Counted from the first letter of the stretch, positions 37,219 through 42,969 are shown. The stretch: 64,000 nt of DNA from Vulcanimicrobiota bacterium (GCA_963812155.1 CAWETW010000003.1:1184001-1248000); one strand, 5' to 3'. Numbers and translations are program-made. The notes: generated by a model not told the origin, from the letters alone.

Positions 37219-38157
37219 ATGCGCTCGTATGCCGTCGCCCTCTCGGTGCTCTGCGCCACGCTGCTTGCGGCATGCGGCGAACGTGGACCCGAAGCGTTCA
37301 ACGCGGTTCCCGCAGCTGCAGCCTTCGGTGGAGGTATGCAGGGCGCGTGGATGTCGCCGGCGGCCAAGAATCCCGACCTGCTCTATATCGCTACCGGCGA
37401 CGACGCCTACATCGTGACCTATCCGGGCGGGAAACTCGTGGGTGCCTTGGGCCTCAACTTCGCGTCGTCGCTGTGCACGGACCGTGCCGGGAATGTCTTC
37501 TTTCCAGTGGGAAAAGTCGTGGAGTATCAGCACGGGAGCCTGCGCCCGTCGCGCGTGCTGGATACCGACAATCTCATTGCGGTAAGCTGTGCGGTCGATA
37601 GGACGACGAACGATCTCGCCGTCATGTGCTGGTCCTCGGGGGCCAGTGCCGTCTTAGTCTATCCAAACGAGCAGATGACGCCCGTGTTCTACGGCACCGG
37701 ATTCGACGCCATCGGTCAGGGCGGCTATGACGACAAAGGCGACCTTTTCGTGGATGGAAACAATAGCCTGGCCGAACTTCGAAAGGGCAGCTCAGAGTTT
37801 GCGTATTATTCGCTCGACTACCGCTTCGATCCGTACGGCGCCATCCAGTGGGACGGTACGCACATGACCATCTCGCGTCCGTCCCATCACGAGATCTATC
37901 GCATCGAGACGGCGGGGTCTTCGCTGAAGATCATCGGAACGACGCACCTTCACGATTGGCACAATCCCTATAACGGAAATTATCCGTTCGTGCAGACGTG
38001 GATTCAAGGCGGCACGTTTATCGCTCAAGACGGTATTGGGGGCGACATTGGTTTATGGCCGTATCCCGAAGGTCACGAACACACGAAGACGATTCGCGGC
38101 TTTCGCAGCGGCCAGGTCAATATTTACGGCGTCGCGGTCAGCCTCGCAAAACGCTGA
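37219..38157 (+). CDS. Hypothetical lipoprotein, beta-propeller-like repeats
   Basis: Lipobox LAAC; repeats LCTDRAGNVF, CAVDRTTNDLAV, GYDDKGDLFVD and IQWDG. Confidence 0.75.
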   Translation: MRSYAVALSVLCATLLAACGERGPEAFNAVPAAAAFGGGMQGAWMSPAAKNPDLLYIATGDDAYIVTYPGGKLVGALGLNFASSLCTDRAGNVFFPVGKVVEYQHGSLRPSRVLDTDNLIAVSCAVDRTTNDLAVMCWSSGASAVLVYPNEQMTPVFYGTGFDAIGQGGYDDKGDLFVDGNNSLAELRKGSSEFAYYSLDYRFDPYGAIQWDGTHMTISRPSHHEIYRIETAGSSLKIIGTTHLHDWHNPYNGNYPFVQTWIQGGTFIAQDGIGGDIGLWPYPEGHEHTKTIRGFRSGQVNIYGVAVSLAKR

Positions 38158-38164
38158 CGCTCCG

Positions 38165-39691
38165 CTAGACCGATTCGGCTAAGCCTTCGGGTTCCACGAC
38201 GGGAACGACGTTTGCGGGATCCGATTTGCGGAATCCGTACGCGAAGAAGAATATCAGCCCCGCAACGAGCGCGATGACGAACCACGTCCACGTCGCGCGA
38301 GAGAGGCCGAAGACCGCGAGGAAAAGCGAGCAAACGATTCCGAGGATCGGAAAGAGTGGAACGAACGGCACGCGGAAACTGCGCGGCATATCCGGTTTGC
38401 GCTTGCGCAGATAGAGAACGCCGGCACAGACGACCGTAAACGCGATTAGCGTTCCGATGTTCACGAGGTTGAGCAGATTGTTCAGGGGCACGATGAGCGC
38501 GAGCACCGCAACGACGACGCCGGTGATGAGCGTCGTACGCAGCGGCGTCTTGAAGCGCGGATGCACGACGGCGACGGCCGGCGGCAGCATGCCGTCGCGC
38601 GCCATAACGTAAAAGATGCGCGACTGGCCGAGCAGCGAGGCGAGCGCGACGCTCGTCGTGCCGGCCAATACGCCGATGGTAATGACCCAATTGAGTGCCG
38701 GCATGTGCAGCGGTGCGAGCGCGTAGACCAGTGGATTCTTGATCGGCACCTGATTCCAAGGTACCGCGCCGACCAATACGATCGCAGTTGCGCAGTAGAT
38801 CAGCGTTCCGATCGCGAGGGCGCCGATCACGCCGACCGGTACGTCGAACTGCGGATTCTTGCACTCCTCGGCGGTCGTCGTCGCGGTATCGAACCCGATG
38901 TAACTGAAAAAGACGTACGCACCGATCGCGATGATACCGTAGGGCTGCGCCGACGACGAGTAGTCGGCCATTCCGCCGAACGGCTTGAGCGTTCCCCAGC
39001 CGATGGGGTTGAAATTGTGCAAATTGACCGCATGAAAGAGCAGCAAGCCGGCCGCGACGAAAACGACGAGGGCCGAAATTTTCAGCACGACGAAGATGTT
39101 GTTCGCCGTCGCGGATTCTCGGATGCCGACCGAAAGCAGAAGGCTCAATCCGATGACGAAGAGCGCGCCGACGACGTCGCACTGCGAGTGGGCGAGGTCC
39201 CAGCTCGACGGATTCCACCACGGTCCGTTGAAGATCAAGTTCGATTGTTGCGCCCACGCCGGCAGTGCCAAGCCCACGGTCTTGAACACGTCTTGGATCG
39301 ACGCCGAGAACTGCTGCGCGACGGGCGCTGCGCTGATGCCGTATTCGAAGATCAACGCGAAACCGATGATCCAGGCGAAGAGTTTCCCGAGCGTCGCGTA
39401 GGCGTAGGTGTACGCGCTCCCCGCGACCGGCACCATCGCGCCGAGTTCCGCGTAGCACAGTGCGGCAAAAAACGACGTAAGTCCGGCCAGCAGATAGGAG
39501 ATGATGACCGCCGGGCCGGCACCTTTGACGCCGGTACCGATGGTCGTGAAGATTCCGCCGCCGATCATCGTTCCAAGACCGATCGCGACGAGATCCTTCG
39601 CCGTTAGCGCGCGGCGAAGGATCTTGCTCTTGCTCATCTCGCGGAGCTTGTCGACGTTGGTCGTCGCGAAGAGTTCCGAGACGAATGACAT
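38165..39691 (-). CDS. APC family amino acid permease (CAT-like)
   Basis: GTMIGGGIF, GSAYTY, FFSYIGFD and AEECKNP motifs; 12 or more TMs. Confidence 0.94.
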   Translation of the reverse strand: MSFVSELFATTNVDKLREMSKSKILRRALTAKDLVAIGLGTMIGGGIFTTIGTGVKGAGPAVIISYLLAGLTSFFAALCYAELGAMVPVAGSAYTYAYATLGKLFAWIIGFALIFEYGISAAPVAQQFSASIQDVFKTVGLALPAWAQQSNLIFNGPWWNPSSWDLAHSQCDVVGALFVIGLSLLLSVGIRESATANNIFVVLKISALVVFVAAGLLLFHAVNLHNFNPIGWGTLKPFGGMADYSSSAQPYGIIAIGAYVFFSYIGFDTATTTAEECKNPQFDVPVGVIGALAIGTLIYCATAIVLVGAVPWNQVPIKNPLVYALAPLHMPALNWVITIGVLAGTTSVALASLLGQSRIFYVMARDGMLPPAVAVVHPRFKTPLRTTLITGVVVAVLALIVPLNNLLNLVNIGTLIAFTVVCAGVLYLRKRKPDMPRSFRVPFVPLFPILGIVCSLFLAVFGLSRATWTWFVIALVAGLIFFFAYGFRKSDPANVVPVVEPEGLAESV

Positions 39692-39748
39692 GCGGGCCGG
39701 GGTTCGCAAGCCAGGAGACCCGCTCCCCTGCGCCCAAAGCCGCCACCG

Positions 39749-40399
39749 ATGCGTTCGACTCAGTTGGCGCTCCGCGTCTGCTTAGTCGCAGTCGCCGCCG
39801 CCTTGGCCGCCGCGGCGGCGCACGTCCTGACCGACGTCGCCGGCGACTATCTCCTGTCACACGACGCCTATGACGGCGTCGCGCATCACTCCCGGCCCGT
39901 GCTGCTTGCCTTGGCCGGCCTCGTGCTGCTCGTCGCGGCATTGCGCATCATTTGCGACCTGCTCGATCGCCGCTGCAGTTCGAAGACCTCGATGCTCGCC
40001 GCGGTGCGTGCCGCGCTCGGACATCCTGCGGTGTTTGCCGTCGCGTCGGGCGCCGCAGCAATCGCCGCGCTGGCCGGGATGGAGTTTTTCGACTGTTCGC
40101 TGGCCGGAAGAATCGCCGGCATTGACGACCTCTTCGGCGGATCGGTTGCTCTAGGCGGCGGCACCGCGCTGTTCCTCGGCGCGGCTTGCGGATGGATAAT
40201 CCACCGCTGCGTCCGGCTCGTCGCAAAATACGAAGCGCCGATTGCCGCCTTGATCGGATCGGTTCTAAAGCTCGCGACGGGCATTCCGGTCGCGGTCACA
40301 TCGCAATGCCGCGCCGCGACGGTGCCGTGCATCGCATACGCGTTGATCCTCACGCGGCAGGGCCGCAAGCGCGGACCGCCGCGCCCCGTTTTCGGCTAA
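39749..40399 (+). CDS. His-rich membrane leader protein with C-terminal RGPP arrest-like motif
   Basis: About four hydrophobic segments, H25/H38/H46/H47 with Asp residues, ending KRGPPRPVFG*; 41 nt upstream of the TonB-dependent receptor. Confidence 0.75.
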   Translation: MRSTQLALRVCLVAVAAALAAAAAHVLTDVAGDYLLSHDAYDGVAHHSRPVLLALAGLVLLVAALRIICDLLDRRCSSKTSMLAAVRAALGHPAVFAVASGAAAIAALAGMEFFDCSLAGRIAGIDDLFGGSVALGGGTALFLGAACGWIIHRCVRLVAKYEAPIAALIGSVLKLATGIPVAVTSQCRAATVPCIAYALILTRQGRKRGPPRPVFG

Positions 40400-40433
40400 T
40401 CCTCTCACACTCGTACACGCCGTAAACGGAAGG
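40386..40433 (+). promoter_or_regulatory. Shine-Dalgarno-sequestering stem-loop
   Basis: CCGTTTTCGGC (40386-96) pairs 10/11 with GCCGTAAACGG (40419-29), overlapping SD GGAAGG (40428-33). Confidence 0.65.
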
Positions 40434-40440
40434 TTTTCCC

Positions 40441-42969
40441 ATGAGGAAACTCATTATGCGCGCACGCGCCTGCTGCGCGCTGCTCGCGCTCTCCGGCATC
40501 CTGGTCCCCTGCGCCGCACTCGCGGCCGCAGCGGTCGACGTCACCGGCACGGTCACCGCGCCCGACGGCACCCCGGTCGCGGGCGCTTTGGTGACGCTCT
40601 CCGCGCCCGGTCGCATGAAGTCCGCAACGACCGACGCGCGCGGCTCGTTCGCGATCTCCGGCGTCACGTTCGGCACCTATGCGGTGCACGCCGCCGCTCC
40701 CGGTTTTGCAACGATCTCGGAGCAGACCGTCACGATCGACGAGCGGAGTTCGACGATCTCGGTGGTGCTCGAACGCGCGACCACCAACTCGCTCACGGTG
40801 ATCGGCCACGTGCGCGCGTCGGCGGGCGAAACCGTCTCGACCGCATCGGCGCCCAGCGTGACCCTCAGCGCGCAGGATGCGGCAGCGGCGGGCGTGACGG
40901 CGGTTTCTTCGATGGTATGGAATCAGTTGAATACGACGCCGGTCATTCCGCTGGGCGGAGGCAGTAACGCAACTGCAGCCTTCGCGCTGCGCGGGCCGGA
41001 CCCGACCGAAACGCTGGTCGATATCGACGGACACGCGATGAATAACGGAAACACGGGCGACTACGATCTCTCGCTGCTCGATCCGGCCGCACTGCAAAAC
41101 GTACAGCTGGTCTATGGAATCGCACCGTCGTCACTGGTCGGCCCCGACACGCTCGGCGGCGCAATCAACGTGCAGACGCTGCAGCCGACGCTCGCGCCGC
41201 ACGCGCTGGTACGCCTCTTCGGCGGCTCCTACGGAAGCTTCGGTGAGACCGCGCAGGCCACCGGTTCCGATCAGCTCTTCGGGTACGCGCTCTCGTTTCA
41301 CGGCGCGTCGTCGAACGGATCGATCAATCAAACCGTTCTAGCGCCTCCCGACGCCGGCGCGCCGCCGGCGCGGCACGAGACGCTGCAATCCGTCGGCAGC
41401 GACTCATACGGAACGTCGTTCATATCGAAGCTGCGCTATCAACTCGGCGGCGACCAAGGCTACGGGTATCTGCAGCTCAATTTTCGCAATCAAGCGATTT
41501 CCAAGGACGACTCCGCGCTGCTGACGACGTATACGCCGCCGGGCTTTGAAGGCGGCGGCGGCGACGACGCCGTCCCCGGCAAAGCCAACCCCAACGACTT
41601 ACCGCTCCTCGGCGGTTACCAAAGTTTCGCCGGCACGAACCTCACGGCGCACCAATCGAACTACGGATTCGACGCGCAGGTTCCATTGGGCAACGAAAAA
41701 CTCGACGGCGCGCCCGCGACGATGCTGCTGTTGAGCCATCTCACGTCGGTGAACTCGCAATCGGTCGACGGTCCCGGCGAAGGCGCGCAGCCCTACCTTT
41801 ATAACCAGCACGACTCATTGGGCGACGACTGGCTCGAGATCGACCATCGCTTTCCCTCGGGCTTGCTCTCATTCAAGTACGATTTAGGGACGGAGTCGCT
41901 CACGACGAACTACGTGCAAAGCCAAATCACCGCCGAGCTGGTGCACGCTCCCGTTCGCGCCAATGCATTTTCGCCGAACGACGAAGGGCCGCCAGTCAAC
42001 AACCTGGGGCTATCGCAGACCACGCGCTCGATGGTGCTACGGTACAACGGCGACCCGACCAGCCAGATTCACTATTCGCTGGCTGCGTATTACAGCAACT
42101 ACAGCACGTTCGGGACGAGCTTCGACCCGCGCGGCAGCGTCGTGTGGACGCCGACGGGCAGCACCTCGCTGCGCGCGTCGATCGGTTCGACGTTCCAGAC
42201 GCCGCAACTTTCCGAGCTGGTCGTGCTCCCGCCGGCCGACCGGGTTCCCGTCGGCGGCATCATCTTCATCGGAAACGCGAATCTCAAACCCGATTTCGCC
42301 ACCGAATACGATTTCGGCGGCGAACAGATCTTCGGCCGCCTGGGGCATCAGCTGCACCTCTCCGCGGACATCTACCAAACGAACTTGCGCGGACCGGCCA
42401 ATCAGCTCGAGGTCGACCCCGTCCCGGGCTGTCAAAGCGACCGGCATCCCAACCGCATCTGTCCGCTGAGTTACCCGGTCAACGCGGGCAACGGTACCTA
42501 CCGCGGGATCGATCTCACTGCGGAGCAGCAACTCGGTCCCTCGTTCCGGCTGCGCGCCGGTTGGGACGTCGACAGTTCCTTCATCACGGCCGTTCCGGAG
42601 AATATTCAAGACGGAACGCTCGTCATCGGCGAACAGACGCTCGGACAACCGTTGCACAAGGCGTACTTCGGCGTGGATCGACAGGTGCCGCAAGGTCTCG
42701 TCTACGGCGCGCAGCTCAACTACGAGGGTTGGTACAACGAACTCAACCGCACGCCGTACGCTACCCTCGACGCGCACGTCGCCTACCGTCACGGTGGCTA
42801 CGAGTTCGGCGTCTACGGAACCAATCTGACCAACGTCTACGCGACGCCGTTCACCATCGTCGGCGGCGGCGTACTCTACGGCACGGTGCCGGGCAATCCG
42901 ATGATCACACCCAACGCCTTCAATCTCGAGGGAGCGAAGCTCGTTTTCGTAATCACGCGCTCAATTTAA
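40441..42969 (+). CDS. TonB-dependent receptor with N-terminal carboxypeptidase-regulatory-like domain
   Basis: Signal peptide, plug (LRG..TLVDIDG..LGGAIN), GNANLKPD and NLTN barrel motifs. Confidence 0.88.
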   Translation: MRKLIMRARACCALLALSGILVPCAALAAAAVDVTGTVTAPDGTPVAGALVTLSAPGRMKSATTDARGSFAISGVTFGTYAVHAAAPGFATISEQTVTIDERSSTISVVLERATTNSLTVIGHVRASAGETVSTASAPSVTLSAQDAAAAGVTAVSSMVWNQLNTTPVIPLGGGSNATAAFALRGPDPTETLVDIDGHAMNNGNTGDYDLSLLDPAALQNVQLVYGIAPSSLVGPDTLGGAINVQTLQPTLAPHALVRLFGGSYGSFGETAQATGSDQLFGYALSFHGASSNGSINQTVLAPPDAGAPPARHETLQSVGSDSYGTSFISKLRYQLGGDQGYGYLQLNFRNQAISKDDSALLTTYTPPGFEGGGGDDAVPGKANPNDLPLLGGYQSFAGTNLTAHQSNYGFDAQVPLGNEKLDGAPATMLLLSHLTSVNSQSVDGPGEGAQPYLYNQHDSLGDDWLEIDHRFPSGLLSFKYDLGTESLTTNYVQSQITAELVHAPVRANAFSPNDEGPPVNNLGLSQTTRSMVLRYNGDPTSQIHYSLAAYYSNYSTFGTSFDPRGSVVWTPTGSTSLRASIGSTFQTPQLSELVVLPPADRVPVGGIIFIGNANLKPDFATEYDFGGEQIFGRLGHQLHLSADIYQTNLRGPANQLEVDPVPGCQSDRHPNRICPLSYPVNAGNGTYRGIDLTAEQQLGPSFRLRAGWDVDSSFITAVPENIQDGTLVIGEQTLGQPLHKAYFGVDRQVPQGLVYGAQLNYEGWYNELNRTPYATLDAHVAYRHGGYEFGVYGTNLTNVYATPFTIVGGGVLYGTVPGNPMITPNAFNLEGAKLVFVITRSI

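Follow-up and report, generated by a model that had tools for sequence, protein, structure and literature searches.

The window, a stretch of 64,000 nucleotides (nt) from a Vulcanimicrobiota bacterium (GCA_963812155.1, CAWETW010000003.1:1184001-1248000), carries a gene for a 216-amino acid (aa) membrane protein that ends close behind the motif Arg-Gly-Pro-Pro (RGPP) and stands directly ahead of a gene for a TonB-dependent outer-membrane receptor. We find that this protein belongs to a large, unnamed family in which the motif, its distance from a charged core, and the receptor gene next door are conserved. Across lineages of the family, the complementarity between the motif region and the receptor's Shine-Dalgarno (SD) site exceeds that of shuffled sequences and of other windows of the same open reading frames (ORFs). 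We propose, with a probability of roughly 65%, that the protein is a putative nascent-chain arrest leader, which would sense a periplasmic ligand and, while its ribosome is stalled, unmask the ribosome-binding site of the receptor. The sensed ligand would probably be a metal cation, bound through a site of Asp, His, and Met side chains. An earlier note on this DNA had read the locus as a ribosome-stalling switch; the comparative sequence evidence, in each comparative check that the note had itself suggested, supports that interpretation, and the coordinates it gave for the 216-aa ORF, RGPP, the stop codon, and the receptor ATG all proved correct on re-reading. The features concerned, counted from the first letter of the window, are the following.

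39749-40399, + strand: leader/sensor gene, 216 aa, unnamed family, predicted polytopic inner-membrane protein (homologues, AlphaFold2 model)
39821-39895, + strand: codons H25-R49, end of helix 1 and first predicted outward loop, with the signature H-x3-D-x2-G-D...D-x-Y-D-x3-H-x-S-R (131-sequence alignment)
40079-40144, + strand: codons M111-S132, end of helix 3 and second predicted outward loop, M-E-x2-D ... G-G-S (131-sequence alignment)
40370-40381, + strand: R208-G209-P210-P211 (CGC GGA CCG CCG), the proposed arrest site (alignments; P- and A-site placing by analogy with CruR)
40383-40396, + strand: 5' arm of the stem, GCCCCGTTTTCGGC, in the last codons of the leader (minimum-energy folds, clade alignment)
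40397-40399, + strand: leader stop codon TAA, at the top of the 5' arm (sequence)
40400-40418, + strand: loop or spacer, C-rich, G-poor, and variable among relatives (clade alignment, without conservation here)
40419-40433, + strand: 3' arm of the stem, GCCGTAAACGG, leading into the receptor SD site GGAAGG (non-coding conservation, opening energy)
40441-42969, + strand: TonB-dependent outer-membrane receptor, 842 aa, with signal peptide, CarboxypepD_reg, Plug, and barrel (Pfam)

The leader family and its terminal motif

In the window, RGPP is followed by RPVFG and then TAA, which places the motif five codons ahead of the stop. R208, P210, and P211 are invariant, and position 209 is solely Gly or Ala, in 31 orthologues, in a set of 22 sequences that includes paralogues of 25-30% identity, and in 131 cluster representatives. 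Among the 150 best representatives of the family, 146 have R-[G/A]-P-P (78 RGPP and 68 RAPP); the four without it are two fragments, one match that covers the N-terminal two-thirds only, and one protein with RFAPP instead. The motif is also present in 51 of the 54 fetched loci with a tblastn hit (L025, L054, and L055 lack it) and in 35 of 40 loci of a metagenome set, where the remaining five end at a contig edge before the site. The conserved terminal RxPP that the earlier note had looked for in homologues is therefore kept down to about 25% identity.

The third codon positions of the motif vary, with Arg encoded by CGC, CGG, CGT, CGA, or AGG and Pro by all four of its codons. Because these synonymous positions vary, selection is, on the alignment evidence, acting on RxPP as a peptide. 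The roughly 40 residues ahead of it are among the most variable of the protein, and the motif is conserved like the charged core. Distances along the chain are nevertheless fixed: D29 and the end of the motif are 179-188 residues apart in 134 of the 138 representatives in which both can be placed, and the GGS of the second outward loop lies 76-79 residues from the Arg in 132 of 142. Behind the motif, the tail ranges from 0 to 123 codons and is at most 14 residues long in 130 of the 146 motif-bearing representatives. Three loci (L071, L072, and L077) have RGPP and then a stop at once; in six others (L011, L018, L020, L022, L023, and L049), the leader frame stays open for 46-123 codons past RGPP, running across the receptor SD and start in another frame. 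In this pattern of conservation, RxPP behaves as an arrest site would, rather than as part of the fold.

Rough gene calls of the window's genome contain five RGPP where 20 are expected and 12 RAPP where 30 are expected, against 50 AAPP for an expected 46. The leader is the sole ORF among these calls with RGPP within 10 residues of its C terminus. Outside the window, a 447-aa ORF from the same rough calls (C4:180954-182297, + strand) has RAPP eight residues from its C terminus and could be another arrest-type gene.

A word-indexed search gave 31 leader homologues, 19 of them exactly 216 aa long; the few that are named belong to Eremiobacterota or Candidatus Tumulicola. A profile search of 1.84 billion representatives extended the family to 387 cluster representatives at E ≤ 0.001 and 161 at E ≤ 1e-30, the clusters being drawn at 50% identity. 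The leader is present in 32 of 121 sampled genomes of the phylum. By family, this sample has it in 27 of 44 genomes of the window's own family, in four of six of a second family, and in none of 70 from 19 other families. Genomes of the sample hold up to five copies, and the window's genome holds one. Species-representative contigs with the leader come from metagenome-assembled genomes of Eremiobacterota/Vulcanimicrobiota, plus a few oddly labelled bins. The ORF at 39749-40399 is thus a real gene of a large unnamed family, found only in two Eremiobacterota families among the genomes sampled.

The leader has no match in Pfam (E ≤ 0.01) or NCBIfam, and a Foldseek search with its AlphaFold2 model returned no relative in the PDB at E ≤ 0.001 (best 0.46). 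A profile search of PDB sequences brought up EmrB (E 0.017), which we dismissed as a chance likeness of membrane helices. All counts of full-length homologues leave out L025/L054 (the same locus fetched twice) and L055, as well as L017, a weak match with stops and without a tblastn hit. L025/L054 and L055 have in common with the leader only the N-terminal signature H-x-x-I-D-x-x-G-D...Y-D...H-x-S-R, over some 40-50 residues, and are without RxPP; they may be a related or truncated family. The most divergent homologue, L024, has RAPP four codons ahead of its stop, is without the H-x3-D-x2-G-D signature, and is followed by a DJ-1/PfpI gene.

The AlphaFold2 model, built from 131 sequences, has a mean predicted local distance difference test (pLDDT) score of 86.5 and places helices at residues 2-35, 48-73, 82-90, 93-118, 133-160, 162-177, and 183-203. 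Four of these (2-35, 48-73, 93-118, and 133-160) are long and hydrophobic, in agreement with the "about four hydrophobic segments" first noticed in the sequence. Confidence is lowest in the C-terminal 35 residues (pLDDT 58-69). Basic residues are located at the N terminus, between helices 2 and 3, and after helix 4. Given these positions, the positive-inside rule would have loops 29-49 and 111-132 face the periplasm, with the N terminus inside.

Across the 131 sequences, D29, D39, D42, R49, D115, R208, P210, and P211 are invariant, and H25, G32, D33, L36, Y41, H46, S48, M111, G130, G131, S132, and L135 are kept in at least 90%. The eight residues of the His/Asp cluster described in the earlier note are all present in the window's protein. 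Six of them (H25, D29, D33, D39, D42, and H46) are conserved; family-wide conservation does not extend to H38 and H47. We suggest that H25, D29, D33, D39, Y41, D42, and H46, together with M111 and D115, form a putative periplasmic ligand site. No Cys is found among the invariant or ≥90% columns of the 131 sequences, and no CXXC or CxxxC motif is conserved. With neither a conserved Cys pair nor a Pfam match, the leader does differ from CruR, a known copper-responsive leader, as the note had said of a His-based protein lacking CxxC. In the first 45 or so residues of four receptors of one RAPP/RGPP sub-clade (L038, L039, L041, and L042), we see a His/Asp-rich stretch right behind the signal peptide, for example AAAHHHDDRAHD and ADEHHDADHDKHHDVHG. 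This sequence feature hints at a metal substrate for these receptors. The window's own receptor has no such stretch after its signal peptide.

Pairing of the proposed stall site with the receptor's ribosome-binding site

The receptor ATG lies 41 nt beyond the leader stop on the same strand, and this start (40441) is retained in relatives as MRKLI.RAR. Family-wide, we examined the 39 non-redundant loci in which a downstream start could be called. The next gene is a CarboxypepD_reg plus Plug receptor in 38 of them, and the barrel can be seen as well in loci of sufficient length. The conservation of a downstream receptor, which the earlier note had named as a check, is thus nearly complete. In the same 38 loci, the receptor start is 49-103 nt beyond the motif; the exception is L024, with its DJ-1/PfpI gene.

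At the window's locus, 40386-40396 (CCGTTTTCGGC) pairs at 10 of 11 positions with 40419-40429 (GCCGTAAACGG), as first described. The 2-nt extension across a bulge also holds: in the minimum-energy fold, C40384 and C40385 pair with G40432 and G40433 across an AA bulge, so that all four G of GGAAGG are paired. Opening positions -16 to +3 of the receptor start costs 14.9 kcal/mol, compared with 9.4 ± 1.3 in shuffled sequences, and none of 100 shuffles is as high. Without the first 22 nt, counted from the Arg codon, the cost falls to 7.8 kcal/mol. The window's own clade comprises nine sequences, in which the 3' arm stands at -22 to -12 and leads into the SD. Of the cells in the stem, 87.6% are paired, and sliding the register lowers this to 12-45%. 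Non-coding conservation extends over the 3' arm here, and the loop is variable.

Pairing recurs across the family with other sequences. In many lineages, a CUCC-containing stretch, located in the Pro codons or in the first 15 or so nt beyond them, pairs with the receptor's GGAG and its flanks. By lineage, the pairing elements include CTCCCGA/TCGGGAG, TCTCCGG/CCGGAGA, ACTCCCGC/GCGGGAGT, and GCGAC-C-TCCGG/CCGGAGTCGC, and from lineage to lineage the register of the anti-SD moves by one base against the reading frame. Since both sequence and register differ, conservation of amino acids in the tail cannot account for the pairing. One paralogue group uses the very codons of RGPP (CGN GGA CCT CCG) for pairing with GGAG and with TCCGCG at a GTG start. 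The arms of the hairpin enclosed in this group covary (GTTGCC/GGCAAC, AATATAGCC/GGCTATATT, and ATGTTGA/TCAACAT). Furthermore, the first Pro of the motif is encoded by the rare codon CCT, which creates CCUCC, in 21 of 65 loci; the background for CCT is 6.1% in the genome and 6.6% elsewhere in the same ORFs.

Three measures compare native loci with controls.

Pairing probability of the SD with the motif plus 12 nt: native 0.63; dinucleotide shuffles 0.14; in 23 of 39 loci, the native value is reached by at most 5% of shuffles
Opening energy of positions -16 to +3: native 12.3 kcal/mol free and 8.7 without the first 22 nt; shuffles 9.9; 14 of 39 loci within 5%
Duplex energy of the 30-nt stall window with the binding site: native -13.4; 176 windows of the same ORF -9.6; among the best 5% in 29 of 65 loci and the best 1% in 21 of 65

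Across lineages, complementarity between stall site and SD therefore exceeds that of shuffles and of same-ORF windows. C makes up 40% and G 23% of the spacers in the 65 loci, whose genomes have a G+C content of about 64%. This C-rich, G-poor composition fits either an unstructured linker or a Rho loading site.

The receptor matches PF13620 (1.3e-16, N-terminal), PF07715 (7.4e-8), and PF00593 (6.1e-23), and no NCBIfam equivalog reaches its cut-off against it. The neighboring genes are a divergent amino acid permease upstream and a convergent cobalamin adenosyltransferase downstream; given these orientations, leader and receptor form a two-gene unit. A scan detected nothing terminator-like on the + strand between leader and receptor, which rules out the stem as an intrinsic terminator, and nothing promoter-like on the + strand. 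Rfam gave a single match for 39400-40700, to isrG, which we attribute to chance, its 17 bits comparing with a gathering score of 100. Ahead of the leader, the gap to the divergent permease gene is less than 60 nt, and the leader ATG has no adjoining SD site. A conserved hairpin-like element, GGAG-n5-CTCC, is located at 39714-39727 in the window's own clade, 22-35 nt ahead of the leader ATG at 39749. Further upstream, 37219-38157 (+ strand) encodes a 312-aa ORF with a lipoprotein-like N terminus and no Pfam family.

A proposed stall-operated switch and its rivals

We propose that the four long helices of the leader would insert in the inner membrane, N terminus inside, with the Asp/His/Met cluster at the periplasmic face. 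By analogy with CruR, the ribosome would stall at R208-G209-P210-P211 with Pro210 in the P site and Pro211 in the A site. At that point, the whole sensor bundle would be outside the ribosome and tethered to it through the spacer of fixed length. The stalled ribosome would cover approximately 40364-40391 and thus the portion of the 5' arm that otherwise pairs with AAACGG-AA-GG in the receptor's SD region. For as long as the stall persisted, the ribosome-binding site would stay open and the receptor would be translated. On release, five more codons would be read, translation would terminate, the stem would re-form, and initiation would fall. Most likely, the signal would be the imported substrate, or a cation related to it, occupying the periplasmic site and thereby altering the duration of the stall. 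Both polarities of control are known, from CruR (PMC9426467) and CutF (PMC9973294), respectively. For an uptake receptor, the likelier direction would be negative feedback, in which the ligand shortens the stall.

A more far-reaching version is a tentative one, and we would sooner bet against it than for it. The family could be a new kind of trans-membrane sensor: a four-helix, Cys-free Asp/His/Met bundle that would bind a periplasmic cation and report, through helix 4 and the fixed spacer, to the peptidyl-transferase center. The stall codons (GGA-CCU-CCG) or the next bases would double as the anti-SD. The whole would be one compact element, present in up to five copies per genome, with each receptor set separately. 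Instead of copper, the cation would then possibly be of the hard type, for instance Fe, Mn, Zn, or a lanthanide.

Several observations weigh against a stall-operated switch. Folding the 91 nt that the earlier note had proposed to fold does give the stem, but its stability does not stand out (z -0.89), with 42 of 200 shuffles folding equally well. The window's locus (L001) does no better than controls in two of the three tests (0.33 for SD pairing and 0.153 for duplex energy). Compensatory changes were also looked for. Across lineages, the stem recurs with different sequences, but in the own clade there is only one compensatory pair in nine sequences, 55 of 500 shuffles score as high, and the 5' arm is also under coding constraint. 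The own-clade stem is conserved and barely covarying, and the evidence there is weaker than it is family-wide. Column-wise covariation is a poor tool in this family because the register of the anti-SD shifts between lineages. In the duplex test, 32 of the 65 loci fall between 0.05 and 0.5, and L019, L068, L076, and L092 lie above 0.5, worse than the median window. Since the loci are related, the counts overstate independence. With the ribosome's footprint removed, the SD stays mostly paired, at a mean probability of 0.66 compared with 0.79 free; because this probability barely drops, opening energy was used as the measure instead, and opening is seen by that energy measure only. The stem would likewise be melted by any ribosome arriving at the stop codon, and plain translational coupling would therefore look no different at the RNA level. 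Moreover, with its 216 aa and invariant charged core, the protein may itself serve some lasting function. Finally, Rho is encoded in the genome, which leaves room for control at the level of transcription.

Three rival explanations were weighed. The stall might be real and act on transcription or mRNA fate as in CruR, by blocking Rho loading on the C-rich, G-poor spacer; release would then lead to termination before the receptor, and the stem would be secondary. The CruR system is a precedent, since there Rho-dependent termination relieved by RAPP arrest controls a TonB-dependent transporter (PMC9426467). The rho gene in the window's genome and the composition of the 65 spacers also speak for it. 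However, leader stop and receptor start are only 41 nt apart here, and family-wide the motif precedes the start by 49-103 nt, compared with the 162 nt across which Rho acts in cruR-bfrG (PMC9973294). In addition, the enriched direct pairing of SD and anti-SD at the stall site has no role in a pure Rho mechanism. We consider this explanation unlikely; Rho and SD mechanisms could also act together.

It would be rather more surprising if there were no regulatory arrest and the leader were a stable inner-membrane partner of the receptor, for instance a periplasm-facing metal handler, made in fixed ratio with it through stem-based translational coupling. RxPP would then be a structural or interaction motif, or a slow spot. 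The long, strongly conserved, and confidently modelled membrane domain with its invariant charged residues is what such a partner might look like. A terminating ribosome would open the stem in any case, and the own-clade stem is conserved rather than covarying. Against this, R[GA]PP is depleted in this proteome and in bacteria generally and arrests in many contexts (PMC12992588). The tail is free in length and sequence, including the forms that read through into the receptor gene in another frame and those with no tail, and the C-terminal 35 residues are the least confident of the model. Between helix 4 and the motif, the chain varies in sequence at a fixed length, as would be expected of a spacer and not of an interaction surface.

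Least probable, in our view very improbable, is that the arrest monitors membrane insertion or export capacity in the style of SecM, MifM, and VemP, and is released by the pulling force of helix insertion rather than by a ligand. The leader is a polytopic membrane protein, and force-dependent release is established for those three (PMC12992588). However, the gene under control encodes no part of Sec or YidC but an outer-membrane receptor. Helix 4 (133-160) would, when the ribosome stalls, be some 50 residues from the peptidyl-transferase center, already beyond the tunnel. Again, the invariant residues are acidic, His, and Met side chains of the predicted outward face, not insertion signals. 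The ligand-responsive stall that would unmask the receptor's ribosome-binding site is the reading that we compare with known systems below.

Comparison with known arrest leaders

In SecM-secA and MifM-yidC2, the SD of the target gene is masked by a stem, which opens when a ribosome stalls close to the end of the preceding ORF. These systems have export machinery as their target, are released by the force of export or insertion, and depend on long, specific arrest sequences; the target in the window is a nutrient receptor. Monitoring substrates of Sec or YidC (SecM, MifM, VemP, ApdA, and ApdP) are recognized by a downstream gene for localization machinery, and here a TonB-dependent receptor stands in that place instead.

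The leader is closer to a class described by Fujiwara et al. (EMBO J 2025, PMC12992588). They report that RAPP and RGPP cause a robust arrest that elongation factor P does not relieve and that these motifs are excluded from proteomes. The motifs cluster toward the C termini of secretory and membrane proteins of small size, with an enrichment ahead of genes for TonB-dependent receptors, among others. These receptors are the top enriched downstream group, with 5450 RAPP against 722 AAPP upstream ORFs (PMC12992588, supplement file 8). Arrest was demonstrated in vitro for seven Streptomyces lividans proteins, some of them with four helices and predicted His/Met sites, and for CruR, where toeprinting put Pro3 in the P site and Pro4 in the A site (PMC12992588). 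The window's leader has the marks of this class: fewer than 300 aa, membrane segments, RGPP near the C terminus, and a close downstream gene on the same strand. Almost all TonB-receptor leaders of the class have signal peptides (PMC12992588), whereas the window's leader is polytopic. In this respect, it is more like SLIV_18480 of S. lividans, which also has four helices and for which a His3/Met site is predicted (PMC12992588).

The Atlas feature score to Actinomycetota clusters is 0.96 for the whole leader and 0.87 for residues 1-165. A profile search for Actinomycetota kin returned only the Eremiobacterota-type family (35 matches, both of the organism-named ones being Eremiobacterota). Kinship with Streptomyces or other Actinomycetota proteins is at this stage only a lead. 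The article left open whether arrest regulates the downstream genes, and how: the words "hairpin" and "Shine-Dalgarno" are absent from its text, which gives no RNA mechanism, and Eremiobacterota are named neither in that text nor in the searched part of its supplement (PMC12992588). A search of the open-access literature on RAPP/RGPP with TonB, Shine-Dalgarno, and CutF found no description of the leader family or of Eremiobacterota leaders.

CruR (Bp2923) of Bordetella pertussis, a DUF2946 (PF11162) protein with a CXXC motif, controls the TonB-dependent transporter BfrG by Rho-dependent termination and needs its RAPP to do so (PMC9426467). Both leaders are exported or membrane proteins with a periplasmic metal-binding motif, putative in our case, and a C-terminal RAPP-type motif a few residues before the stop, and both are followed by a TonB-dependent receptor. 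The spacing between sensor and motif is conserved in each, from CXXC to RAPP in CruR (PMC9426467) and from GGS to Arg here, a parallel that is analogous and not evidence of homology. The same uptake-feedback logic would apply. In contrast, CruR has about 145 aa, one export signal, and CXXC, whereas the window's leader has 216 aa, four helices, and a proposed Asp/His/Met site without a conserved Cys pair; and where CruR acts through Rho across its long gap, the stall site here pairs with the SD. PF11162 is not found in the window's genome (84% complete), nor does the leader match it; judged by these profiles, the leader is not a DUF2946 protein.

For the RNA part, the nearest parallel is CutF-cutO of Rhodobacter capsulatus. 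Experiments support that an SD-shielding stem-loop is opened there by the stalling of a metal-sensing exported leader (PMC9973294; bioRxiv 10.1101/2025.02.05.636593). CutF is itself a DUF2946 protein that senses periplasmic copper (PMC9973294). In both systems, an anti-SD stem-loop shields the downstream ribosome-binding site within reach of the stalled ribosome, in silico only for the window's locus. CutF, however, is a small Sec-exported CxxxC protein with a PPP-type motif, whereas our leader is polytopic with R[G/A]PP. The target of CutF is a copper-induced multicopper oxidase, for which the ligand prolongs the stall, whereas the target here is an uptake receptor. Unlike CutF, many loci of the family have the anti-SD inside or directly behind the stall codons.

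By analogy, the element thus resembles CutF in its RNA part and CruR in its target and logic, and falls in the published class of RAPP/RGPP leaders. The earlier note had suggested an undescribed family. This holds for the protein, for which Pfam and NCBIfam are empty, and not for its kind: RAPP/RGPP leaders before TonB receptors and the CutF stem-loop were already published, and the principle is not a new one. What is new is the proposed polytopic, Cys-free Asp/His/Met sensor, the Eremiobacterota lineage, and an anti-SD built into or beside the stall codons. With 387 clusters, one fixed type of target, and a short gap with complementarity between stall site and SD, the family provides a large and clean test case for regulation by arrest. 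If our reading is true, it would give a first handle on the control of outer-membrane uptake in uncultured soil Eremiobacterota. Metal sensing by a nascent chain would then also reach beyond small, exported, Cys-based peptides such as CruR and CutF to a polytopic sensor free of Cys.

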